Source of the DNA: an uncultured Gammaproteobacteria bacterium
GTDB taxonomy: Bacteria > Patescibacteriota > Patescibacteriia > Magasanikbacterales > UBA922
Assembly (NCBI GenBank): GCA_964612105.1
Contig: CAZTEU010000005.1
Coordinates: 45,039 to 109,038 of the forward strand
DNA: 64,000 nt
Direction: 5' to 3'
The notes below the pieces were generated by a model, which was given only the letters and a program-made list of their open reading frames with translations, was not told the DNA's origin and did not search any database. How positions within the stretch are numbered: the stretch's first letter is position 1; the number at the start of each line of letters is the position of its first letter. Below, in pieces: positions 8,560 through 52,205 of the stretch. The translations under genes and the position numbers were made by a program.

Positions 8560-8560
8560 C

Positions 8561-8590
8561 AAAAAAAGCGCTATGCGCTTTTTTTAATAC
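8561..8590. terminator. rho-independent terminator (AAAAAAAGCGCTATGCGCTTTTTTT)
   Basis: Stem AAGCGC/GCGCTT with flanking A/T runs. Confidence 0.75.
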
Positions 8591-8679
8591 TAGACAAAAA
8601 GGTATGGGAGCGAACGAATCTTGTTTCTACGCCCCCTCAACCCCGCCCCAGATGGGACTAGTGTGGGACGGCGAGGCTA

Positions 8680-8916
8680 CTAACCCCTACTCGTGGTGTT
8701 GCTGTTCCAGACGAGGTCGAAGACCAGCGCCAGGAATAGGCTCATCGTGCAGATGCAGAACAGCACGATGCCGGTGTCGAACATCATGTGCTCGAAACCG
8801 TTCAGCCTGATACCATTGCAGCTGATGGCTGCACTTCGGTACATCGCGGATGCACCACCCACGATGAACAGAACTATGCAACCGATGAAGCAAGAACCAA
8901 ACAGCTTCCAGAACAT
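8680..8916 (-). CDS. small membrane protein (78 aa), island A gene 1
   Basis: Two hydrophobic helices; AAGGAGGGGAAA immediately upstream of ATG (rc of 8917-8932). Confidence 0.6.
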   Translation of the reverse strand: MFWKLFGSCFIGCIVLFIVGGASAMYRSAAISCNGIRLNGFEHMMFDTGIVLFCICTMSLFLALVFDLVWNSNTTSRG

Positions 8917-8990
8917 TTTCCCCTCCTTGAGGAATAGGTAACCTTACGGTCACCAGCGATAAGTACGTTCGCTCAACCTTTCTATCTAGT

Positions 8991-9040
8991 ATAGATTGTA
9001 AAGAGTTTTTGTTTTACCAAACAAAGAAGTGACGGGAGTG
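8991..9040 (+). repeat. intergenic repeat copy 1 (TTGTAAAGAGTTTTTGTTTT ... AAGAAGTGACGGGAGTGAA)
   Basis: Near-identical 20-mer plus related purine-rich 19-mer also at 9576-9628; third inverted partial copy at 9955-9975. Confidence 0.7.
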
Positions 9041-9084
9041 AATTGGATTCAGACTCGCCACCTCGCAGGCTCCTTCTCCTGCGA

Positions 9085-9498
9085 TCAGCGACGGCCCGTG
9101 TGTTGCTCGTCTGCGATCGTCGCCACCCCGGCGAACAGGATAGCGACACTGATGAGCCCAAGGATGGCCCACACCGTCGCCTCTGGATTCAGCACCATCT
9201 GGGCGCTGAATATTCCGCCGTACATGACGGCGGTGAAAACCATCCCAGCGAAGCTCGCCAACCAGACGAACATCCCCGTAACCAGGATTACCATCCCATC
9301 CCAGCGGGAGAAGGTCGACAGGTTGCAGATGCAACCCAAACCAGCCGCCACGAAGATGAAGGCGCCGATCAACAGCGCCAATGTCGCGAACTCGAGGAGG
9401 AACGGCAGGGTGAACACCCAGCCGAACACCTTCATGGCCACGCCCATGATGGTCGCGACTAGAGCCAAACTGACCGTCGGGATATCAAAGAAACGCAT
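9085..9498 (-). CDS. polytopic small membrane protein (137 aa), island A gene 2
   Basis: Four hydrophobic segments; CAAGGAGGAGAAAATG upstream. Confidence 0.6.
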   Translation of the reverse strand: MRFFDIPTVSLALVATIMGVAMKVFGWVFTLPFLLEFATLALLIGAFIFVAAGLGCICNLSTFSRWDGMVILVTGMFVWLASFAGMVFTAVMYGGIFSAQMVLNPEATVWAILGLISVAILFAGVATIADEQHTGRR

Positions 9499-9575
9499 TT
9501 TCTCCTCCTTGCTCGTCTACTGACGAGCTGTAGGCGTTTCGTCCAAAATTCACTCCACTTCTTTATTTGGTATAA

Positions 9576-9628
9576 GTTGTAAAGAGTTTTTGTTTTTCTA
9601 CTAAACAAGAAAGCGAGGAGGTGAACAT
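9576..9628 (+). repeat. intergenic repeat copy 2 (TTGTAAAGAGTTTTTGTTTTT ... AGAAAGCGAGGAGGTGAA)
   Basis: See copy 1. Confidence 0.7.
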
Positions 9629-9683
9629 AGTACGTTACAACCCCTCGCTGGAAACTGCTCCACAGGAAAAGGGTTGAAAGATC

Positions 9684-9920
9684 TCACTCGACGTCGTTGC
9701 ACACCGAGCGCACGGGCTCCTCATCGCTGTACCAGCCGAGGGGGGCTGCATAAACGACGAGGCCACCGATGCTCCCGAGGGAGGCCAGGGACAGACCCAG
9801 AATGGCCGTCTCCACCCGCCCCGCATCAGGGACGAGGAACAGGCCGGTGGCGAAGAGCCCCAGACCCACGAGGAGGAGGATGAAGAAACAGTGGGAATCA
9901 CGATCACGGCGACTACGCAT
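9684..9920 (-). CDS. small membrane protein (78 aa), island A gene 3
   Basis: Two hydrophobic helices; GGAG 8 nt upstream of ATG; TG-extended -10 promoter at 10027-10040. Confidence 0.5.
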   Translation of the reverse strand: MRSRRDRDSHCFFILLLVGLGLFATGLFLVPDAGRVETAILGLSLASLGSIGGLVVYAAPLGWYSDEEPVRSVCNDVE

Positions 9921-9954
9921 GGCAAACTCCAGCCTAGGTTACTTGAACGACGAT

Positions 9955-9975
9955 GTGTCGGACTTGTTCACCTCG
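9955..9975 (-). repeat. inverted partial repeat copy 3 (rc: AAGAAAGCGAGGTGAACA)
   Basis: Reverse complement matches purine-rich half of copy 2; lies about 40 nt upstream of island A gene 3. Confidence 0.6.
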
Positions 9976-10026
9976 CTTTCTTACTTAGTATATTTTAAGG
10001 TACTACTATCCTATTTTACCAACACA

Positions 10027-10042: not shown

Positions 10043-10070
10043 AACCCCTTTTGTCAAGGGGTTTTTATGG
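10043..10070. terminator. bidirectional terminator AAAAACCCCTTTTGTCAAGGGGTTTTT
   Basis: 10-bp perfect stem, loop TTGTC; related hairpin at 21637-21665. Confidence 0.8.
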
Positions 10071-18094: not shown

Positions 18095-19834
18095 ATGAAA
18101 TCAATACTCCCTAAAAAAATATTATTCTCACTGGGAATTTTTTTATTTGTTTTTGGAGTAATGAGTTATCCCCCACAAGCTAAGTCTGCAAAGTTAGACT
18201 TTGGAGCTGTTTGTACAGGAGATTCTCAATGCGATTCTGGAGAATGCGAAAACAGCACAAAAAAAGATGCGAAAGGACAGACAATAGCCTACTGTGTGTG
18301 TGAGGAAGAAGTTGTAGGAGAAGATGGTTTAGATTGTGCAAAGAAATATGGTGGAACATCTTCTGACTGGACTTGTGAAGATGGTGGAGATGCAAGTTGG
18401 AATATAAACTATTGTGTTAGTACAAAAGATGATAATGATAAGAGGTATGCTGTTCCAGTAAAGATACTAGGTGCTCTAAGTGGAGTTTCAGATGCAATCA
18501 TAAAATCCGGTACTGGAGTAACGAAAGACGAAATAGACACCTTAGTTACAACACCTCAACCTAGGATAAAAATCCCTGGATTAAACTTTACTAAAGTGGA
18601 AAACCTGCGAGATTTAGCTACCAAAGAACAAACTCCAGACGGTCGAGAAGAGTTATATATAAACATACCATTTTTTGGGGAATACATAGCTACTATATAT
18701 AGATTTGCAGTAATACTTGCTAGTATTTGGGCCATTGTATACATGATGGACGCTGGACTACTACTAATAATTGCTGGAGGTAATGCAGAAAAAATTCAAC
18801 AGGCAAAACATAAAATAGTACGGGGTTTCTCTGGATTGTTCATTATATTAGGATCATATGTGCTGTTATACACATTAAATCCAGAGTTGGTGACGTTTAA
18901 GAATCTAAGGATATTGTATGTAGAGACAGAGCCATATCCAGAGATAACACATGAAACTGCTCATCAGGGTCCAGGTGGAACTTTGCTTCCTGCGAATGGA
19001 TTAGTAGCAAAAAAAGTAACCTCATTTGGTGAGCTTACAGAACAAGATTTTACAAAAGATAAAATGAACGCAATAATGACTGACGGATGGAAAGTTTGGC
19101 AATCTTTTACACAAACAGAAAAACAGGAGGTTTTACCACATTTATTTAAGTATATTGGCGAATGCCCACAATCTTCTAGCTTAATTAACATGGGTATTAA
19201 TCATGCCAACTGGTCCAAGAAAAAAATCCACAAGGATGCACTTCCGGCAGCCCAGCTACTTGCAAAAATTGCAGATAGAGAAGGGTTCAGGATATATATA
19301 TCCTCTACTTATCGCACAACTTTGAGACAAACACAGATATGGAATACAGGAATAGTGGCGAGGTATAAGCAAAAAAGATCAGGATGGAAAAGAAATGAGG
19401 GTAAAATCGGACGCCCTTCGTGTGGTTCACCACATAACTCCGGAGCTGCAATGGATGTAAATCTGAAAATACCAGTAAAGAAAGGCGGTAAAATAACATA
19501 TAAGTGCGTGGCTTGTCAGAACGATAAAAAGTACTTTATAACAGCAAAGACCGACTCAGCGGCCATAAAACAATATGAACAACAGTATCTAGGTGGAAGC
19601 GATGGTGGACTATATAGATTAATACTGGAAGAGATGTTCAAAGAGGCTGGTTGGGTAAGATACTGTGATGAGTATTGGCATTTTGAGACTGCAGTTACAA
19701 CACGTTACAACAAGTGGGATAAAGCTCCAGAGACACGTTGTGTAAGACACTATAAAAATTGGAAGCCTGAAATAGAAGACAATATAAAGAAAAAAGCAAA
19801 CTCTCTTACAAAAACTGGCACATTGTTTAAATAA
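18095..19834 (+). CDS. secreted Cys-rich / pilin-like TM / peptidase M15 (VanY/LAS-type D,D-carboxypeptidase) fusion protein
   Basis: Signal peptide from MKSILPKK; 18-Cys N-domain; two-helix hydrophobic hairpin resembling TrbC/VirB2 pilins; C-terminal SPHNSGAAMDV (H-x6-D) and EYWHFE Zn-ligand motifs of M15 peptidases. Confidence 0.6.
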   Translation: MKSILPKKILFSLGIFLFVFGVMSYPPQAKSAKLDFGAVCTGDSQCDSGECENSTKKDAKGQTIAYCVCEEEVVGEDGLDCAKKYGGTSSDWTCEDGGDASWNINYCVSTKDDNDKRYAVPVKILGALSGVSDAIIKSGTGVTKDEIDTLVTTPQPRIKIPGLNFTKVENLRDLATKEQTPDGREELYINIPFFGEYIATIYRFAVILASIWAIVYMMDAGLLLIIAGGNAEKIQQAKHKIVRGFSGLFIILGSYVLLYTLNPELVTFKNLRILYVETEPYPEITHETAHQGPGGTLLPANGLVAKKVTSFGELTEQDFTKDKMNAIMTDGWKVWQSFTQTEKQEVLPHLFKYIGECPQSSSLINMGINHANWSKKKIHKDALPAAQLLAKIADREGFRIYISSTYRTTLRQTQIWNTGIVARYKQKRSGWKRNEGKIGRPSCGSPHNSGAAMDVNLKIPVKKGGKITYKCVACQNDKKYFITAKTDSAAIKQYEQQYLGGSDGGLYRLILEEMFKEAGWVRYCDEYWHFETAVTTRYNKWDKAPETRCVRHYKNWKPEIEDNIKKKANSLTKTGTLFK

Positions 19835-19889
19835 CGGATACATGTAATAATATAGGAACCTGTCGTGAGACAGGTTTTAATATACAAAT

Positions 19890-21224
19890 ATGACAAAAGA
19901 AACAATAATCTTCGTGTGCTCTAACTGCGACGCTCAATTCCAGAAATGGACTGGACAATGCTTCGAATGTGGTAAATGGGGTACAGTAGAAAACAAGACA
20001 GCAATCACAGATAACAAATCTGGAGACAGTAAAGTTATTGGTGTAGGTGTAAACACACAAAAGCTAGGTGAAATAAAAAATGTAGATTCTTTTAGGAACT
20101 CCTCAAAAATTGGAGAACTAGATCGTGTTCTTGGTGGTGGAATAGTACCAGGTAGTTTAATACTTCTTGGAGGAGAGCCTGGTATTGGAAAATCCACTCT
20201 TTCTTTGCAAATTGCAAACAATATGAAAAAGTCACTATACATTTCTGGAGAAGAATCAATAAATCAGATTAAGATGAGAGCAGACAGACTTGGTAATGCA
20301 AATGCAGATATGTTAGTTATGCATGAGAATGATATAGAAAATATATGCGCAACAATAAAAAAAGAGTCTCCGGAGATTGTAATAATAGACTCAATACAAA
20401 CAATGATATCCAATGACACAAGTGGAGAGCCTGGAAATGTAAATCAGGTGCGTGTGTGTGCAACAAAGCTTTTGGATTCTGCTAAGCAAAGTAAGAGTGC
20501 TATAGTTATTATTGGTCATGTTACAAAAGATGGTTCTGTTGCTGGACCAAAGACTCTGGAACATCTAGTAGATACTGTTTTGTACATTGAGGGAGATAGG
20601 TACTACCAAACAAGACTTTTGAGAACAATAAAAAATAGGTTTGGCTCTACAGATGAAGTAGGTGTCTTTGAAATGAACGAACTCGGTCTTAAGGAAGTAA
20701 AAAACCCATCATCTGCTTTCTTAGAAGAGCGTGCAGATGATACGCCTGGCAGTGTTGTTACTTGTCTTATAGAAGGCACTCGCCCACTACTAATTGAGGT
20801 GCAGGCATTAGTAAATAAAACTAGTTTTGGATATCCTGTACGCAAAGCAAGCGGTTTCGATCTAAATAGATTACATGTACTTGTAGCTGTACTACAAAAA
20901 AGAGCAGGACTGCAGTTAGGTCAGTATGATATCCATGTAAATGTAGTTGGAGGATTAAAAGCACAAGAGCCGGCTGCAGACTTAGCAGTATGTCTTGCTA
21001 TAGCAAGCTCTTTTAAGGACAAGGTACTTGGTGGAGATTTGGTAGTTTTTGGAGAAGTTGGATTAGGTGGAGAAGTAAGAAGAGTAAATCAGTCTCAAAA
21101 AAGAATAAAAGAGTGTGAGAAACTTGGTATGCAACGAGTAGTAACTTCCAAAAACCCAGGTAATGTTCATGGAACAAAGATTATAGAAGTAAAGAATATA
21201 GCAGAACTAATCCAGAAAACATAA
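19890..21224 (+). CDS. radA: DNA repair protein RadA (Sms)
   Basis: N-terminal C4 zinc finger (CSNCDAQFQKWTGQCFECGKWG), RecA-like Walker A GEPGIGKST, KNRFG motif, Lon-like C-terminus. Confidence 0.95.
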   Translation: MTKETIIFVCSNCDAQFQKWTGQCFECGKWGTVENKTAITDNKSGDSKVIGVGVNTQKLGEIKNVDSFRNSSKIGELDRVLGGGIVPGSLILLGGEPGIGKSTLSLQIANNMKKSLYISGEESINQIKMRADRLGNANADMLVMHENDIENICATIKKESPEIVIIDSIQTMISNDTSGEPGNVNQVRVCATKLLDSAKQSKSAIVIIGHVTKDGSVAGPKTLEHLVDTVLYIEGDRYYQTRLLRTIKNRFGSTDEVGVFEMNELGLKEVKNPSSAFLEERADDTPGSVVTCLIEGTRPLLIEVQALVNKTSFGYPVRKASGFDLNRLHVLVAVLQKRAGLQLGQYDIHVNVVGGLKAQEPAADLAVCLAIASSFKDKVLGGDLVVFGEVGLGGEVRRVNQSQKRIKECEKLGMQRVVTSKNPGNVHGTKIIEVKNIAELIQKT

Positions 21225-21244
21225 AACCACCTTGTGGGTGGAAT

Positions 21245-21610
21245 ATTGACCGCCGACCCGCCCGAACCACTCAGAAGCAAGCTTCTTTGTGATCCGGACA
21301 GGTCAGACGTGTGAGACTGGTTGAGAACTACACCATACCAACGTGGGCATTGGAGATTCCGATGGAACCCCTGATGATCTGGCCAGACGCTGTGAGGTTG
21401 TAGTTGGAACAGGCACGAACATACCCGCGGTAATTCTCACGGTCATCTTCCGTGCGATTACCGCTCAGAATCCACCTCGCGTAGTCCTGAGGGATTCTGT
21501 GCTCAACACGGAGCCTGGCAACAATCTGTCGCCCCTGTGAAAATTCGCTCTGATGGACACTCATGCTCTCTTTCCTCCTGTTTAGGGGTATTTACCCCTA
21601 AGAAATTGAA
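21245..21610. other. GC-rich micro-island B
   Basis: 60-nt sample 21251-21310 counts 36/60 G+C versus 20/60 in adjacent recG 3' end; flanked by hairpins CCACCTTGTGGGTGG and AGGGGTATTTACCCCT. Confidence 0.7.
21328..21564 (-). CDS. hypothetical 78-aa protein, island B
   Basis: CAGGAGGAAAGAGAGCATG upstream; no recognised domain. Confidence 0.5.
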   Translation of the reverse strand: MSVHQSEFSQGRQIVARLRVEHRIPQDYARWILSGNRTEDDRENYRGYVRACSNYNLTASGQIIRGSIGISNAHVGMV

Positions 21611-21636
21611 TTCGTCAAAAACTATATACTAAAATA

Positions 21637-21665
21637 TCCCTTTTGTCAAGGGATACTTTTTATTC
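21637..21665. terminator. terminator hairpin ATCCCTTTTGTCAAGGGAT + T-run
   Basis: Shares CCCTTTTGTCAAGGG core with 10043-10070. Confidence 0.7.
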
Positions 21666-23726
21666 CAAATGTACTGTCTTTTCCCACTCTTTTAACTTCT
21701 CCTTAATACTTGGTACCTTATCAAAATCTATATCCCTAGCTAATTCCCTAGCTGTCTTAATCAGCTCAACATCCTGCATAGTAGCAAACTGCAATTGCAT
21801 TAATCCACTTTGAGATGTCCCATATACTTCTCCCGGTCCTCGCATAGCAAGATCATATTCTGCAACATCAAAACCGTCTGTGTTTTTCTCAAAAAAACCA
21901 AGCCTGTCTTTTACAAAATCAGAATCACTGTCTGTAAATAAAAGACAAAATGATTGATGAGAACTTCTTCCAACCCTACCACGAAACTGATGAAGTTGTG
22001 CAAGACCAAACCTGTCCGCCCCCTCAATCATCATAACAGACGCATTTGGAATATCTACACCAACCTCAACAACAGACGTAGACACAAGAATATCTGTCTT
22101 CCCATTCGCAAAATCTTTCATTACCCTGTCCTTTTCCTCTGTCTTCATCTTTCCATGCAAATAATCCATGCTTAGTTTTGGAAAAATATCTCTGTTTAGC
22201 TTCTCATATTCTTGCATTACAGATTTCTTCTCAGCACCTTTTGTTGCGTCTATCATTGGACATATTACAAAAATCTGTCTACCTTTTTTTACCTGCTGTT
22301 CTATAAAATCATATGCCATTCCCCTATTCTTTGGTTCCACTAAACGAGTTTTAATAGGTTTTCTTCCTTGTGGCATTTCCTTAATTACAGATAAATCTAA
22401 ATCTCCATAAAGAGTAAGAGCAAAAGAACGAGGAATAGGTGTAGCTGTCATACTAAGAAAGTGCGGTTGAGTGTCCGGATCCCCTGACTTTTCCCTAAGT
22501 TTCTTCCTCTGTTTAACACCAAACCTGTGTTGTTCGTCTACAATTACCAATCCAAGATTGTGAAATACAACATCGTCAGAAAGTATAGCGTGGGTTCCTA
22601 CAAGCACATCTATATTCCCCTCCTCTATATTCCTATACAACTCTCTTTTCCTTCCTGCTTTTGTTTTTTCTTTTAATTCTATACCAATAGTCTCCAACTG
22701 AGAACGTGTAACAAGCGCAATAGCAATTTCTTTCCCTAAAACTTTCTGTAATGATTCAAAATGTTGTTTTGCAAGTATTTCCGTAGGTGCCATCATTATT
22801 GTCTGGAAATTACTCAAAACAGAATTATACATAACCAAACCAGCAACAACCGTCTTTCCAGAGCCTACATCCCCCTCCAAAAGCCTGTTCATTGGATTAG
22901 CCCTCCCTAAATCTTGCAATATATCCCATGCAGATACCTTTTGTGCATTAGTAAGATTAAAAGGAAGTCTTGCAACAAACTCTTTCACCTCCTTTTCCCT
23001 AAACTCAATTTGTGGAGCACTGTGTCTTTTTAATGACTGACGTAACATTTCTGCACGAAGCTGAAGAATAAAAAGTTCATCAAATTTGAGTCTTTTTTGC
23101 GCATGAGTTAGCTCATCCTTATCATCTGGAAAATGAATAGAGCGCACAGCTTCTGCATATGGCATTATATCCACCTCTTCTCTTATATCATCTGGAATCC
23201 AATCCTCCAAACTATCTGCTAGATGTACAACCTGACTCATTAAAAAACGTAATTGTTTCTGTGTAATACCGGCAGTAAGAGAATACATAGGGACAATTCT
23301 TCCTGTATGTACAGTTTCACTTTTCATTTTCTCATAACTGGGGCTTTTCATAACAGTACCAAACATATCTGTACTAACTTTTCCAGAGAAATAAACCATA
23401 TCACCGGATTTTATATTCTTAGAAATATATGGTTGCCCCCACCACACAATTCTCAATTGTTCCTCATCATCACTAACAACAGCTTCTGTTATTATTTTTC
23501 TCTTCTTATAACTTCTTTTACTATTAATTAATTCTACCCTTGCCAACACAGTTACCTGCTCTCCTTCAACAAGATTAGATATAGGGACAGTCTGACTAAA
23601 GTCTTCATAACGAAATGGAAAGTAAAACAACAAATCCCCTGCTGTCTCTATTCCAAGGCGTGACAGGCGGGTAGACAATGCTTTCCCTACTGTCTTAAGT
23701 GCAGATATTGGGGTTTGTTTATTCAT
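21660..23726 (-). CDS. recG: ATP-dependent DNA helicase RecG
   Basis: 688 aa; wedge domain, DEQHRFGV (DExH), helicase motifs. Confidence 0.95.
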   Translation of the reverse strand: MNKQTPISALKTVGKALSTRLSRLGIETAGDLLFYFPFRYEDFSQTVPISNLVEGEQVTVLARVELINSKRSYKKRKIITEAVVSDDEEQLRIVWWGQPYISKNIKSGDMVYFSGKVSTDMFGTVMKSPSYEKMKSETVHTGRIVPMYSLTAGITQKQLRFLMSQVVHLADSLEDWIPDDIREEVDIMPYAEAVRSIHFPDDKDELTHAQKRLKFDELFILQLRAEMLRQSLKRHSAPQIEFREKEVKEFVARLPFNLTNAQKVSAWDILQDLGRANPMNRLLEGDVGSGKTVVAGLVMYNSVLSNFQTIMMAPTEILAKQHFESLQKVLGKEIAIALVTRSQLETIGIELKEKTKAGRKRELYRNIEEGNIDVLVGTHAILSDDVVFHNLGLVIVDEQHRFGVKQRKKLREKSGDPDTQPHFLSMTATPIPRSFALTLYGDLDLSVIKEMPQGRKPIKTRLVEPKNRGMAYDFIEQQVKKGRQIFVICPMIDATKGAEKKSVMQEYEKLNRDIFPKLSMDYLHGKMKTEEKDRVMKDFANGKTDILVSTSVVEVGVDIPNASVMMIEGADRFGLAQLHQFRGRVGRSSHQSFCLLFTDSDSDFVKDRLGFFEKNTDGFDVAEYDLAMRGPGEVYGTSQSGLMQLQFATMQDVELIKTARELARDIDFDKVPSIKEKLKEWEKTVHLE

Positions 23727-23794
23727 ACTGAGTTATTGTACGGGATTTTTGTAATAAAAACAAAAAAACACCATTTTGGGTGTTTCTGGTCCGC

Positions 23795-24100
23795 TGGCTC
23801 GACCACTACTCCGTAGAGTGTGGCCAAGCCAGAGGACATGTTCTACCTCTCCTTCTGTGAACGTACAAACCGTCGTCGTGCTTTCGCAACGATTTCGGAA
23901 ATACGCATGAGTTCCTTGAGTCGACTGAGATCAACCCTGTTCGCTTGCCTTTTCGGTGTTTCAACCTTACCCAGGTATGAAACACCTGGACGATCAAAAC
24001 GAGTCTCTCCGTATGGTCCCCCCATGACTGGCCTCCTGATTGTGCTTCGTTTCTATGGGTTTTTATATCACTGTAGGACATGTCTGTCAATTTAAAAACA
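23795..24100. other. GC-rich micro-island C
   Basis: G+C-rich segment between two AAAAACACC...GGTGTTTT hairpins. Confidence 0.65.
23843..24025 (-). CDS. hypothetical highly basic 60-aa protein, island C
   Basis: AGGAGG 6 nt upstream of ATG; overlapping antisense ORFs lack RBS. Confidence 0.45.
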   Translation of the reverse strand: MGGPYGETRFDRPGVSYLGKVETPKRQANRVDLSRLKELMRISEIVAKARRRFVRSQKER

Positions 24101-24130
24101 AAAAAACACCCTTACAGGTGTTTTATTTTG

Positions 24131-24147
24131 TGCTCCCGACAGGAATA
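24131..24147. repeat. 17-nt direct repeat of tRNA-Arg 3' end (GTGCTCCCGACAGGAAT)
   Basis: Exact match to 24208-24224 inside the tRNA gene, about 60 nt away; att-like duplication. Confidence 0.75.
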
Positions 24148-24210
24148 CTGAGGTGTCCCTAGCTGGAATCACTCACATAAAAAAGTGTGCAAGCACACTT
24201 TTTTGCGTTC

Positions 24211-24282
24211 GTGCTCCCGACAGGAATCGAACCTATACCGATGGCTCCGCAAGCCACTGTTCTATCCATTAAACTACGGGAG
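24211..24282 (-). tRNA. tRNA-Arg (anticodon GCG by manual fold)
   Basis: rc folds as cloverleaf: acceptor GCTCCCG/CGGGAGC, anticodon stem GTGGC/GCCAT, loop TTGCGGA, T-loop TTCGATT; 72 nt, no encoded CCA. Confidence 0.8.
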
Positions 24283-24338
24283 CTTGATTGTTATCAACGC
24301 GAAAATTATATACCAAAAAACAGGTAGTGTCAACCTGT

Positions 24339-33600: not shown

Positions 33601-33869
33601 GGCGTTTGTGTAGCGGAGAGGAGGTAACCTCAATGCCTGTGGTAATATAAAGGCCCTCAACCCGCTACAAAATACAGGATATCAGAAAAAAGGAGAAAAT
33701 ACAAGAAAAAGAAAAGTCCCGAATAATTTCGGGATTTTTCTCGGCCTTGGGATTACCCTACCTCTATATTACCTACGGACAATTATAGCAATAAAATATA
33801 GATTTGTCAAGTAGGAGTGTAAATAAATCGGAAAAATAAAAAATCATCCTTTTTTAGGATGAATCGTTT

Positions 33870-35060
33870 CACCCTGCCCAGCGTTTCTTGCTGAGCAGGG
33901 TGTGCCTCCTTTTTTGGTAAGGTCATGAGAGACCGAGTGTCCGAGGAACCAAGTTCCACTACCCGAGAGCCAAGGAACCTAGCATCCTAGGGCTGACGCT
34001 TGCTACGGACGAGAAAACGAGAGCGGTCACCCCAGCCGCCGTCAAACCAGCGGAGATAAGTTAAGAGGTGCTGACCGTTGCCGTCGCTCCAGACACACGG
34101 GCAGCCCCGGTCACCGTTCAGGTCCTGCCAGACGCTTCCGAGCGCGACCAGTGGCCATTCCAGACCGACTTCTTGATGTTCGGCGCAGTATACGAGCAAA
34201 TCGCGCAACGAGGCGACCTCGTAGCCTTGTTTCTTGATCTCATCCAGCACTGCTGTGGTGTGCAAACGCTTGTTGAAATGCAAAACCTCGAGACTGTACT
34301 CGTAGTCAGGCTGGTCATCCGGAAGGGGGAAATTCTCGGTAGTGATGTTATATTCGACGTAACCGAACCCACATGCCCCAATGAGCTGTTGTAATTCATC
34401 CGGAGAGGTCTCTTCATCAGAAACGGTCTTCTTACGACGGACCAGGAAACGGTAGTAGTTGATCCACCTGCTCTCAAGCCAGTCGAAATCCAGACGCCGA
34501 CCGTTTCTATCACGCCAGACAAACGGACAACACTGGCCACCGTGCACATTCTGCCAAGTACTCCCGAGTGCGGACAATGGCCAGTCCAGGCCGACTTTGG
34601 AATGTTCGGCGCAGTATACGAGCAAATCGCGCAACGAGGCGACCTCGTAGCCCTGCTTCTTGATCTCATCCAGCACTTCCGTGGTGGTCAGACCCTTGTT
34701 GAGGTGCAGAACCTCGAGACTGTACTCGTAGTCAGGCTGGTCATCCTCGAGCGGGAATTTCTCGCCCATGATGTTATCATCCACTGAGTGGAACTTGCAT
34801 GCTCCAATGAGCTGTTGCAGTTCGTCCGAGATAGGCACTTCGACCAGCTTGTCGAACCGCCCTTCCACAATCGCTTGGAGCGCTTTTTTGACCAGAGCTG
34901 GGTCGTACGGGCACCCCCTCTTCTGCCGAAGCAACCTCTTGATCTCGTGGAGCTGACCATCAATCTCGAAATACAGATCGCCTGCAACGCTAAACGCCAT
35001 GACAATCTCCTCTTTTCTAAGCTACAAATGCCAACGCACTCGCGCCAACACTCTTGCCTG
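33870..35060. other. GC-rich micro-island D
   Basis: Sharp compositional shift; single long minus-strand ORF with RBS, multiple overlapping antisense ORFs typical of high-GC DNA. Confidence 0.7.
33987..35000 (-). CDS. hypothetical 337-aa protein built from two tandem ~150-aa repeats (unrecognised domain), island D
   Basis: AAGAGGAGA upstream of ATG; internal repeat SDELQQLIGAC.F...DDQPDYEYSLEVLH.NK..TT.VLDEIKKQGYEVASLRDLLVYCAEH..VGL.WPL.ALGS.WQ....G..CP.VW.D.NG present twice. Confidence 0.6.
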   Translation of the reverse strand: MAFSVAGDLYFEIDGQLHEIKRLLRQKRGCPYDPALVKKALQAIVEGRFDKLVEVPISDELQQLIGACKFHSVDDNIMGEKFPLEDDQPDYEYSLEVLHLNKGLTTTEVLDEIKKQGYEVASLRDLLVYCAEHSKVGLDWPLSALGSTWQNVHGGQCCPFVWRDRNGRRLDFDWLESRWINYYRFLVRRKKTVSDEETSPDELQQLIGACGFGYVEYNITTENFPLPDDQPDYEYSLEVLHFNKRLHTTAVLDEIKKQGYEVASLRDLLVYCAEHQEVGLEWPLVALGSVWQDLNGDRGCPCVWSDGNGQHLLTYLRWFDGGWGDRSRFLVRSKRQP

Positions 35061-35157
35061 TTTTGGAACTGGATAAAGCATACCAAAATATCACTATATG
35101 TCAAGTATGGTGCTAGAACTTGCCAAAATAGTAAAAAATGGTTAAAGTAAATGGGCT

Positions 35158-43231: not shown

Positions 43232-43436
43232 ATTTTTGGCTTAGTTGAGCTAAATTTCTATTGTAATTATATCATAATTCTGCTTGTAATATCAAGGAAT
43301 AGTCAAGTTGACAGGCATACTTTTTTGTGCAACAATGAAAAAACCAGCGTCGTTATGGCGGGGTCATCCCAATGCGGGATTAGGGTGTCTTCTTCTTCCA
43401 CACCAACAAAGGAAGATTTTTCAAGGAGGTGTCGTT

Positions 43437-43799
43437 ATGGCATCTAGACAGTATGAGTTTTTGGACAAGACCGGAGAGACTTGGTACCACATCGTAGAAG
43501 GTATGTGTCCCGGCATTTGGGACCTGATTATCAACTCACTTGTGCGCGGTAACCAGTGCACTGTGATAATCTACACCCAAAGCCAAGCCTCTGGACAAAG
43601 ACTGGGCATCGAGCTGACACACCTGAAGAGTGTCACCAACCTCACGTCGTACGTCGACAAAGAGTGCGAAGAGTGGGCACTCGTTGCAACAACCCCGTGG
43701 AACTGGGTAACCGTGCGGTTCAACACCAAGACGCGACATGGACGCCTCCGGTTCCTGACGAAAGAGGAAGAGAGGGTGTGCACCACGCTCATGGAGTAG
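43437..43799 (+). CDS. hypothetical 120-aa protein, island E (start at MASRQYEF after AAGGAGG)
   Basis: CAAGGAGGTGTCGTTATG; ORF track's longer 43308 start lacks RBS. Confidence 0.5.
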   Translation: MASRQYEFLDKTGETWYHIVEGMCPGIWDLIINSLVRGNQCTVIIYTQSQASGQRLGIELTHLKSVTNLTSYVDKECEEWALVATTPWNWVTVRFNTKTRHGRLRFLTKEEERVCTTLME

Positions 43800-43821
43800 A
43801 GGTAACCCCACACAGACGACA

Positions 43822-43862
43822 AGACCCCCGTTCCTGCAAGGTTCGGGGGTCAATTCTTTTTT
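43822..43862. terminator. terminator GACCCCCGTTCCTGCAAGGTTCGGGGGTC + TTTTTT
   Basis: 8-bp GC stem. Confidence 0.75.
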
Positions 43863-43868
43863 ATAAGA

Positions 43869-51489: not shown

Positions 51490-52060
51490 TAGCAAAACAA
51501 AAAAACACCATATTAGTGTTCTTTTGAATTGGGCCGAGATTTTGTATAGGTACTCGGCCGTTTAACCTATGTTGTCGTACTCCCCTTACTCGGTAGGCAT
51601 CTCGACATCGCTGACGTCGACACCTAGAGCCAAGGCGCATACTTGGTAGTCCGCGACGCGATTCTGGTAGATCGACCCTCCAACGCATCGCACGAAGCGC
51701 GTAACGAAGTCCTTGAACCCGTGGTCCAGGTCCATGGCAGTACAGATGATGTGAGATGCCGCATACCTGAAGTCTTCGTCGACCATACCATACATGAAGT
51801 TCTGCAGGGCACTCTCGCAGAGTCCACCACACAGTGAGTCAGCCAGAGGGATGTCCTTCCAGGCGATGTAGGTACGGTTATTGTAGCCACGTTCCTCGTG
51901 AAAGAGTGTTTCATATGAGACCCCCTTCTCTTGAATCGCCGCTTTATTGAGGAGCCAAACCTTCAGACACTTGCTGACCTGGGCTTGCAGATACTGATTC
52001 ATTTCCATCTCCTTGTAAAGAGCCTCTATTTTGTCCTCCACCACGCCTTTTTGTGATTTC
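51490..52060. other. GC-rich micro-island F
   Basis: Compositional shift bounded by hairpins (AACACCATATTAGTGTT, GGCCGAG...CTCGGCC). Confidence 0.65.
51586..52002 (-). CDS. hypothetical 138-aa Cys-containing protein, island F (start at MNQYLQ after AAGGAG)
   Basis: CAAGGAGATGGAAATG; ORF track GTG start further upstream lacks RBS. Confidence 0.5.
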   Translation of the reverse strand: MNQYLQAQVSKCLKVWLLNKAAIQEKGVSYETLFHEERGYNNRTYIAWKDIPLADSLCGGLCESALQNFMYGMVDEDFRYAASHIICTAMDLDHGFKDFVTRFVRCVGGSIYQNRVADYQVCALALGVDVSDVEMPTE

Positions 52061-52205
52061 AGAACGCCTTAATATACCACGAAATGGAGCGTATGTCAAT
52101 GGTTATATAATGCCATAGGTCTGTTATAAGGCTATACATAGCCCTTTTTGTTAATGTTGTCAGAAGTATTGACATATCAAGCATATTATGCTATACTATA
52201 TACAT

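Follow-up and report, generated by a model that had tools for sequence, protein, structure and literature searches.

The convergent genes radA and recG lie 435 nt apart in the 64-kb stretch of DNA analyzed here (the window), and about 355 nt of the gap between them has a GC content of 52–54%. This GC-rich block, island B, carries a single open reading frame (ORF) of 78 codons on the strand of recG, preceded by a Shine-Dalgarno (SD) sequence and bordered by hairpins (Table 1). The two flanking genes were assigned from Pfam families on identical genes in sibling contigs, and their products are 61–68% (RadA) and 51–73% (RecG) identical to those of Candidatus Magasanikbacteria MAGs, which places the uncultured organism in the CPR/Patescibacteria. 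Nearby genes include dprA, pth, der, a LytR-family gene, and a VanY-domain gene. A first-pass annotation, made from the sequence of the window, had described a GC-rich block of about 360 bp between radA and recG, an island holding a single ORF behind a perfect SD. The block is present, and the sequence upholds this description; in GC content and codon usage the islet is of foreign type.

Table 1. Features of the radA–recG interval, in window coordinates.
Feature	Position	Strand	Details
radA	19890-21224	+	Pfam families on identical genes in sibling contigs
Terminator hairpin plus tail, UUUUAUGUUU	21241-21217	-	overlaps the radA stop codon
Predicted intrinsic terminator, CCACC-CACAA-GGTGG	21227-21241	-	followed by TTTTATGTTT, into the radA stop codon
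GC-rich block	21245-21601	.	about 355-360 nt, foreign composition; edges formed by the long 3' hairpin and the 5' hairpin
Long 3'-UTR hairpin	21249-21312	-	27 bp, five G.U pairs, 2x2 internal loop, CUUG loop
ORF, 78 aa	21328-21564	-	ATG 21564-21562, TAG 21330-21328
Shine-Dalgarno sequence, AGGAGG	21574-21579	-	6/6, 9-nt spacer to the ATG (21562-21564)
5'-UTR hairpin, UUAGGGGU-AAAU-ACCCCUAA	21582-21601	-	8 bp, G+C-rich; centroid structure
Promoter-like sequence of the first-pass annotation, TTGACG-18-TAAATA	21589-21618	-	TTGACG 21618-21613, TAAATA 21594-21589
Candidate promoter P1, TTGACA-17-TATAGT	21621-21649	-	-35 box 21649-21644, -10 box 21626-21621; 11/12 consensus
Predicted bidirectional terminator hairpin, TATCCCTT-TTGTC-AAGGGATA	21635-21655	both	end of recG
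recG	21660-23726	-	stop at 21660; Pfam families on identical genes in sibling contigs

Composition and integrity of the locus

In 200-nt windows across positions 21200–21600, the GC fraction was 0.515–0.535, compared with 0.33–0.41 within radA and recG and about 36% for the window as a whole. The block itself is GC-rich, and the predicted promoter and terminators lie in AT-rich DNA. At least 15 contigs, drawn from JGI, ENA, and Logan assemblies and representing at least 10 samples and three pipelines, were identical over positions 21225–21659; three are short contigs with the ORF called as a protein, and more than a dozen are longer. The source samples belong to the JGI 33000075xx–33000093xx series and the SUTE22-1/SCRA20-1 series. 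Because these contigs come from different samples and agree across the whole gap, an assembly artefact at the junctions is excluded. None of them carries a SNP in the island; the flanks do contain SNPs. The population is clonal, with all contigs of the window's own species identical at the island, which leaves zero variable sites there for a dN/dS estimate from population variation.

The genes called in the roughly 6 kb to each side include no transposase or integrase. Within the window the island and its long hairpin are single-copy, on which ground we dropped an identity as a repeat or MITE; the sole piece that recurs is a 15-mer promoter hairpin, described below.

Coding potential of the 78-aa ORF

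Translation of the minus strand gave exactly the 78 residues quoted in the first-pass annotation, and the SD ahead of the ORF is perfect, as had been stated. The GC content of the ORF at the three codon positions is 0.54/0.44/0.62, the value for third positions comparing with 0.24–0.28 in radA and recG. When the six frames were scored with a codon model whose training set was the remaining island ORFs, the ORF frame ranked first and was the only one with a positive score (+8.0 bits, against −4.4 bits for the next). The island codon model also outscored the native model on the ORF by 58.6 bits.

We weighed these signals against the possibility that the ORF is spurious or a non-functional relic, that is, leftover foreign or once-functional DNA in which a frame stays open since GC-rich DNA is poor in stop codons. 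ATG-initiated ORFs of at least 78 codons occurred in 5.7% of shuffles of the block, and the 10 arginines and zero lysines of the predicted product are, by our arithmetic, close to a random translation of the same base composition. Both observations are compatible with a relic, as is the behavior of gene callers, which reported the ORF on three short contigs only and left it out on every long one. A relic would not be expected to carry a 6/6 SD at ideal spacing before the first ATG of the ORF, a coincidence that adds a further factor of about 2 × 10−3 by our arithmetic from base composition. Nor would it be expected to place its frame at the top of the six, or to fit exactly between the leader hairpin on its 5' side and the hairpin and terminator on its 3' side.

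The same SD signature recurs elsewhere in the window, which contains six GC-rich islets, each organized as a separate expression unit. All of their ORFs are orphans when judged against four HMM libraries (Pfam, PHROGs, PADLOC, and NCBIfam). Matches to AGGAGG at five or more of six positions precede 7 of 8 island ORFs, compared with none of about 42 native genes when their assigned starts are used; counting any in-frame start within the first 50 codons, the native figure becomes 3 of 43. Island C, on the opposite side of recG, has the layout of island B, with a promoter and CAGGAGG ahead of a 60-aa ORF, then the window's strongest hairpin and a terminator. Island C also contains a second copy of 17 nt from the 3' end of tRNA-Arg. 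An island protein of 137 aa shows four hydrophobic, TM-like segments when read from its sequence. Another, of 337 aa, has a conserved internal duplication; the genome also encodes a paralogue of it, and a sibling strain about 98% identical at the DNA level carries an allele with a single repeat. Genuine proteins are clearly encoded by at least some of the island genes, and the sharing of an SD signature with such genes argues against a relic. The occurrence of perfect SDs alongside an SD-less native gene set is an oddity in its own right.

The first-pass annotation had also pointed out that two island A ORFs have the same length of 237 nt. The lengths do agree, but the sequences share zero similarity: all-against-all BLASTP ruled out kinship between the product and the two 78-aa island A ORFs. 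The equal length is best treated as a coincidence and would carry no information.

The predicted product has a mass of 8.9 kDa and a pI of 9.6 and is hydrophilic (GRAVY −0.59), with a maximum 19-residue hydropathy of 0.6 and thus no TM segment. We rejected a small toxin of a type I toxin-antitoxin system on the missing TM segment and on the promoter scan, which shows no antisense promoter inside the island. Predicted tryptic peptides of this Lys-free product are IPQDYAR, WILSGNR, ACSNYNLTASGQIIR, and GSIGISNAHVGMV. A role as a small nucleic-acid-binding protein or an accessory strain-specific protein would be only a guess from these properties.

Expression signals and RNA structure

The promoter-like sequence TTGACG-N18-TAAATA proposed in the first-pass annotation exists, but it was not among the sites listed by our consensus scan, and its −10 box falls within the loop of the 5' hairpin. 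The scan instead yielded a stronger candidate, P1, the best promoter match in the region, with a predicted start near position 21614 and a leader of about 50 nt. Its −35 box sits within the recG terminator hairpin, whose loop and 3' arm carry TTGACA. P1 would be the likelier promoter of the two, and it occupies the same position as the post-recG promoters found in relatives (see below). The recurring 15-mer, CCCTTGACAAAAGGG, folds as a hairpin and carries the −35 box. It is present in exactly two copies in the window, each just upstream of island genes; the second copy (10046–10060) lies upstream of the island A genes and belongs to a 12/12 promoter match with an extended TG.

The hairpin at the end of recG is followed by CTTTTTATTC on the plus strand, where the scan listed it, and by TTTTAGTATA on the minus strand. 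It would terminate recG on the minus strand and would be the first T-run terminator met by plus-strand transcription from radA. Both framing hairpins of the first-pass annotation, CCACCTTGTGGGTGG at 21227–21241 and AGGGGTATTTACCCCT at 21584–21599, were located. The one on the recG side, part of the 5'-UTR hairpin, marks the boundary of the GC-rich block; the 5'-UTR hairpin ends 3 nt before the SD, and the 61-nt leader folds with z = −1.95. On the radA side, the CCACC...GGTGG terminator was listed by the scan on the minus strand only, and the plus side continues as AATATTGACC, which has no T-run. The promoter and the terminator of the cassette are predicted elements, identified as consensus matches only.

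The long 3'-UTR hairpin has a dG of −40.5 kcal/mol, compared with −22.1 kcal/mol for shuffled sequences (z = −5.7), and 0 of 200 shuffles were as stable. Its stability is strand-specific, the plus strand giving z = −0.9, and among 80-nt folds across both strands of the 64-kb window only one is more stable. The window contains no second copy of it, and its 20-mer is absent from IMG/VR. The cassette as a whole unit folds with z = −5.2. Both P1 and this strand-specific hairpin had been overlooked in the first-pass annotation.

In an AT-rich genome, a GC-rich block often proves to be a structured RNA. This background, with the fold of the hairpin on the minus strand and that of the whole unit, favors the alternative that the transcript is functional as RNA and the ORF incidental. 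The active part would chiefly be the 27-bp hairpin. It might serve as an sRNA, be an RNase III substrate or a signal for processing, bind a protein, or form a barrier to transcription between radA and recG. The 237-nt ORF segment, however, does not fold beyond its shuffles (z = −1.3). Structure is confined to the UTRs, as expected for a protected mRNA and not for a structured RNA gene, and a 3' hairpin is equally expected as an mRNA stabilizer for a coding unit. An RNA-only role would also leave the SD and the codon-frame signals unexplained. Rfam gave no match to the island at gathering thresholds, and a relaxed E-value added only chance-level matches (snoZ278, 22.6 of 36 bits; Xist_exon4, 14.5 of 100 bits), on which basis we rejected a known RNA family.

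Homology and structure searches

A word-indexed search of 5.8 billion proteins returned the ORF itself only. Searches of Pfam, PHROGs, PADLOC, and NCBIfam produced zero family matches, including anti-phage defense and phage families, in agreement with the earlier statement that no domain is recognizable. Neither tblastn against phage and plasmid records nor a scan of IMG/VR matched the ORF; with both the protein and the hairpin 20-mer unmatched, we dropped an origin from phage, plasmid, or IMG/VR sequences.

Exhaustive HMMER searching of 1.84 billion representatives yielded, besides the ORF itself, only polyubiquitins and Cna_B repeat proteins. The polyubiquitin E-values of 2.7e-8 and 6.6e-14 are sums over 5–9 repeats of a local match in which a single repeat contributes only 4.7 bits (i-Evalue of about 570). 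BLASTP against mono-ubiquitin gave nothing at E ≤ 100, and Pfam PF00240 did not match. We therefore rejected a ubiquitin or beta-grasp identity, and the Cna_B matches represent the same repeat-summation artefact.

Structure prediction, which the first-pass annotation had proposed for the 78-aa product, brought no structural support. The AF2 single-sequence model contained three helices and a beta-hairpin at a pLDDT of 53.7, an antisense control ORF reached a higher value of 62.4, and the best Foldseek match in the PDB had E = 3.5. A winged-helix reading was dropped on account of the control.

The poor model with its better-scoring control and the want of a homologue in any database searched both favor a relic, and the first-pass annotation had stated that absent expression together with absent homologues would suggest one. 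That no homologue was found anywhere searched is correct, but relic status does not follow, because the same slot in relatives holds other orphans, one of them a conserved family.

The radA–recG junction in related genomes

Comparing the radA–recG junction across related genomes, another proposal of the first-pass annotation, showed that the slot recurs with different ORFs. Convergent radA and recG are kept across Patescibacteria, with a gap that ranges from overlap (0) to 3144 bp and contents that are unrelated across about 45 loci. As a rule, the gap in Magasanikbacteria has a higher GC content than the flanking DNA. The closest genome (L020) has a gap GC of 0.58–0.67 compared with 0.37, and like the window it has GC-rich islets in both slots beside recG. 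At nine loci (L020, L012, L005, L007, L014, L084, L087, L006, and L013), a strong predicted promoter, TTGACA/TTGACG-17-TATAxT, stands directly after the recG stop, followed by a GC-rich small ORF and then a GC-rich hairpin. The small ORF has a clear SD in L014, L084, L013, and L006.

These slot ORFs are mutually unrelated except for one family, shared by L004, L006, and L087; the 110-aa ORF of L020 is likewise an orphan. The window ORF gave negative results against the slot ORFs of relatives in blastn, tblastx, and all-against-all BLASTP, and against the L004/L006/L087 family in hhalign, and on these results homology to the occupants was rejected. Between L005 and L087, whose RadA proteins are 93% identical, the leader and 3' modules are 80–82% identical and the ORF segment has been replaced. 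A sibling strain at 98–99% ANI is seen in ERZ23499059 and ERZ23499079. A contig (L184) from a sibling of 99.2% DNA identity departs from the window 27 nt before the radA stop and ends 31 nt later; these 31 nt at most hint that the junction may differ even within the species. Because the predicted promoter is conserved, the ORFs are unrelated, and replacement has occurred inside conserved flanks, the radA–recG junction is, on this comparative reading, a hypervariable slot downstream of recG, equipped with a conserved putative promoter. This conservation of the promoter slot, and the conserved protein family formed by at least one resident ORF, also count against a relic. With all of this evidence considered, we regard it as unlikely that the ORF is a relic.

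The small proteins of L006 and L087 are only 43% identical, compared with 89% for RadA, indicating that slot genes evolve very fast. Such rates lend weight to the possibility that the window ORF is a positional orthologue, namely the ancestral post-recG small gene of Magasanikbacteria, diverged past recognition and not acquired. Position, strand, promoter placement, and 3' hairpin are alike in many relatives, and all slot occupants are GC-rich, as descent would have it. On the other side, BLASTP, tblastx, and profile comparison found no similarity, and in the L005/L087 pair the ORF was replaced outright while the flanks stayed conserved, a pattern unlike gradual divergence. With age, foreign codon usage and the presence of an SD among SD-less genes would be expected to fade. 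We consider such descent very unlikely.

In several relatives the terminator is preceded, on the same strand, by a conserved rod-like RNA element about 100 nt long; its consensus fold has 41 pairs, 3 of which show compensatory changes. Its presence at the same junction is a point in favor of an RNA-level element in the window as well. A covariance model (R1) built from L004, L005, L006, and L087 detects the element in seven distinct genomes, with true members scoring 32–144 bits. Against the window island, with filters off, R1 gave 4.3 bits (21223–21308), so the island is not a detectable homologue. In view of this score, and of the ORF segment with no excess structure and the coding signals described above, a role as RNA with an incidental ORF seems to us distinctly unlikely.

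Every slot occupant is GC-rich and has a high GC3, which is odd for lineages that share only about 65% identity in RadA. Simple recent transfer would not explain this consistent GC-richness.

Discussion

We consider it on balance probable that island B is a self-contained, moron-like single-gene transcription unit of foreign composition, lying in a hypervariable post-recG slot of Candidatus Magasanikbacteria. Counting against this reading are the want of a homologue and of conservation or dN/dS support for selection at the protein level, together with the shuffle frequency, the amino-acid make-up, the gene-caller behavior, and the poor structural model noted above. The interpretation given in the first-pass annotation is partly supported: it appears largely right but incomplete. 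The locus would be an orphan moron-like cassette in a variable slot.

Phage morons are extra single genes, with their own promoter and terminator and a deviant GC content, inserted between conserved genes (Hendrix/Juhala; PMC3594210). The cassette resembles them in its one gene with a predicted promoter and terminator (both consensus matches), its deviant GC (0.52–0.54 compared with about 0.36), and its insertion between conserved genes. The window's cassette is, moreover, absent from the same position in related genomes. Unlike morons, it is flanked by chromosomal radA and recG, housekeeping genes and not phage genes, and nothing phage-like emerged from the called genes in the 6 kb to each side or from the phage and IMG/VR searches with the ORF. 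A further difference is that its promoter appears to be part of the conserved host slot, being AT-rich and kept in position, and not part of the insert. Because it lacks a phage context, the cassette is not a moron in the strict sense.

Hotspots of horizontal gene transfer (HGT) between core genes, without mobile-element genes, provide a second comparison (Oliveira et al. 2017, PMC5635113). Like these hotspots, the radA–recG interval has different accessory content in different genomes and lacks integrase and transposase genes, as would fit exchange by homologous recombination in the flanks. Turnover between close relatives, a feature of such hotspots, was seen in the pair L005 and L087; contigs of the window's own species are identical, as the population is clonal. 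In contrast to hotspots, the slot holds one tiny ORF at a time behind a conserved built-in promoter, and its occupants, uniformly GC-rich and in several cases SD-led, stand in genomes that are AT-rich and SD-less.

Two further kinds of element share features with the cassette. Integron cassettes carry an attC site with R''/L''-L'/R' boxes (RYYYAAC ... GTTRRRY), and an intI integrase lies nearby. Island B is similar in combining a short, foreign, promoter-less ORF with a long imperfect hairpin behind a resident upstream promoter, at a site whose occupants vary in relatives. It differs in that the 3' hairpin has no paired R boxes (TCTCAAC, a 6/7 match, on one side and nothing on the other), the cassette is single and not part of an array, and no integrase is called within about 6 kb. 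An attC-like site was rejected, as the R boxes are missing at the hairpin base. Compared with ORFan small genes, the ORF is alike in having no homologue in very large databases, in its short length and atypical composition, and in being missed by callers. It is set apart from them by unusually complete predicted expression signals and by a slot that recurs across a class-level lineage.

If island B is indeed a moron-like transcription unit, the following working can be proposed. A sigma-70-type promoter within the recG terminator hairpin would start the transcript near position 21614, as suggested by the consensus match and by the promoter position in relatives. The leader of about 50 nt would contain the 8-bp G+C-rich hairpin and then AGGAGG-9-ATG, both of which are seen in the sequence. 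Given the SD contrast between island and native genes, we infer that translation would depend on the SD and would yield a basic, Lys-free, soluble protein of 78 residues. Beside the radA stop, the 27-bp hairpin and the intrinsic terminator would end the mRNA and probably stabilize it. The radA-side hairpin has no plus-strand T-run, and therefore radA transcription may read antisense through the cassette to the hairpin at 21635–21655. Most likely, the cassette was acquired or exchanged by recombination in the slot, and not by a recognizable mobile element.

A broader and rather speculative model, which we would regard as improbable in its full form, is that Magasanikbacteria keep "expression slots", in which a strong resident promoter is fused to the terminator hairpin of a core gene. 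The arrangement behind recG would be one case, and the 15-mer hairpin/−35 module recurs upstream of island A. GC-rich, SD-bearing orphan mini-genes from a common, unseen GC-rich pool would be swapped in and out of such slots, captured without an integrase or attC. Since the host's own genes lack SDs, the products of these cassettes might make up a distinct class of small, strain-specific proteins with its own mode of translation, perhaps active in host or phage interaction.

By itself, the 78-aa ORF is one more orphan gene; the slot and the SD pattern are less ordinary. Genes of this class are probably under-annotated, because standard callers skipped this ORF on long contigs. The coexistence of two gene classes, one AT-rich and SD-less and the other GC-rich with a perfect SD, raises the question of how a CPR ribosome handles both. 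If slots of this kind are general in CPR, they would explain part of the large share of orphan small proteins in these reduced genomes and would indicate where to seek strain-specific symbiosis or defense factors.

Two gene classes in the window

The gene set of the window splits into two classes, AT-rich native genes and the ORFs of six GC-rich islets. Whereas none of the approximately 42 native genes has a Shine-Dalgarno sequence at its start, an AGGAGG-type Shine-Dalgarno sequence precedes seven of the eight islet ORFs. Searches of Pfam, PHROGs, PADLOC and NCBIfam returned zero matches for all island proteins.

Coordinates of features in the window and at related loci (L numbers)
Feature	Position	Strand	Description
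GC-rich islets	8560-10000, 21245-21601, 23727-24211, 33800-35157, 43300-43868, 51520-52100
15-mer	10046-10060, 21638-21652	minus	CCCTTGACAAAAGGG, exact copies
Island A spacers	8968-9042, 9549-9625		78-nt terminator-plus-promoter module, TTGTTT...AAACAAAAACTCTTTACAA
Island C cassette	23727-24211	minus	between tRNA-Arg (24212-24283) and recG start
Island C candidate promoter		minus	TTGACA-17-TATAAA
Island C SD		minus	CAGGAGG
Island C ORF	23843-24025	minus	60 aa
Island C hairpin	about 23775-23830	minus	most stable in window, -47 kcal/mol per 80 nt
Island C terminator		minus	GGTGTTTTTTTGTTTT
Island D gene	33987-35000	minus	337-aa protein
Candidate RNA	L005 6355-6502; L087 5417-5540; L004 6458-6592; L006 6974-7095; L085 3262-3360; L019 7074-7174; L084 5509-5619	minus	radA-recG gap
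Small-protein family	L004 6644-6895; L006 7174-7551; L087 5620-5880	minus	downstream of recG

Islands A and B share an exact 15-mer that, within the window, is confined to two sites, each with GC-rich island genes directly downstream. The 15-mer forms a terminator hairpin with a -35 box inside, and its island A copy is part of a candidate promoter (TTGACA-17-TATAAT plus an extended TG, 10057-10029) that matches the consensus perfectly. The terminator-plus-promoter modules in the two island A spacers are 76% identical. Because this module is common to the spacers, each island A gene would, judging from sequence, constitute its own transcription unit.

The island D protein contains an internal duplication (333 nt, 80% identical), and a paralogue, 49% identical, is encoded on the same 390-kb genome contig. 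In a sibling strain (contig L183; DNA identity approximately 98%), the allele has only one repeat and encodes 195 aa.

radA in other contigs

A second sibling-strain contig (L184; ENA ERZ23499079) aligns to 18956-21197 of the window with 99.2% identity. It departs from the window sequence 27 nt upstream of the radA stop, giving a RadA of 438 aa, and stops 31 nt past the divergence point; those 31 nt were found nowhere else. The junction may be structurally polymorphic, or the end of this contig may be chimeric. Of two further assemblies compared (L166 and L167), one has a run of N inside radA (20771-20780) and the other lacks 34 nt (20747-20780), which splits the gene; both irregularities probably stem from faulty local assembly and have no biological cause.

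The radA-recG region in relatives

In related Magasanikbacteria, the radA-recG gap carries a candidate conserved non-coding RNA, proposed from sequence comparison: a rod-like hairpin of approximately 100 nt (AACCACUCGCACCUC...CGAGUGGUU) whose tip varies and which precedes a terminator. Its consensus fold has 41 pairs, with compensatory changes in three. The element had no Rfam match, and no copies were found in the window. Downstream of recG, three relatives encode a family of small proteins (approximately 70-75 aa; motifs DFG..A..G and AR.AAGV; high GC3) with no Pfam annotation. These proteins evolve very fast, with 43% identity compared with 89% for RadA.

A second cassette beside recG

On the other side of recG, island C matches island B in layout and constitutes a second such cassette. 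Adjoining it, at about 24140-24156, the last part of tRNA-Arg, its 3' end, is duplicated over 17 nt (ATTCCTGTCGGGAGCAC); this copy resembles an attachment-site scar. In the closest complete genome (L020, OZ246405.1), the interval separating recG from the tRNA upstream of it likewise contains a GC-rich islet, at 9200-10000. This islet mirrors island C, and both recG-flanking slots are therefore filled in that genome and in the window.
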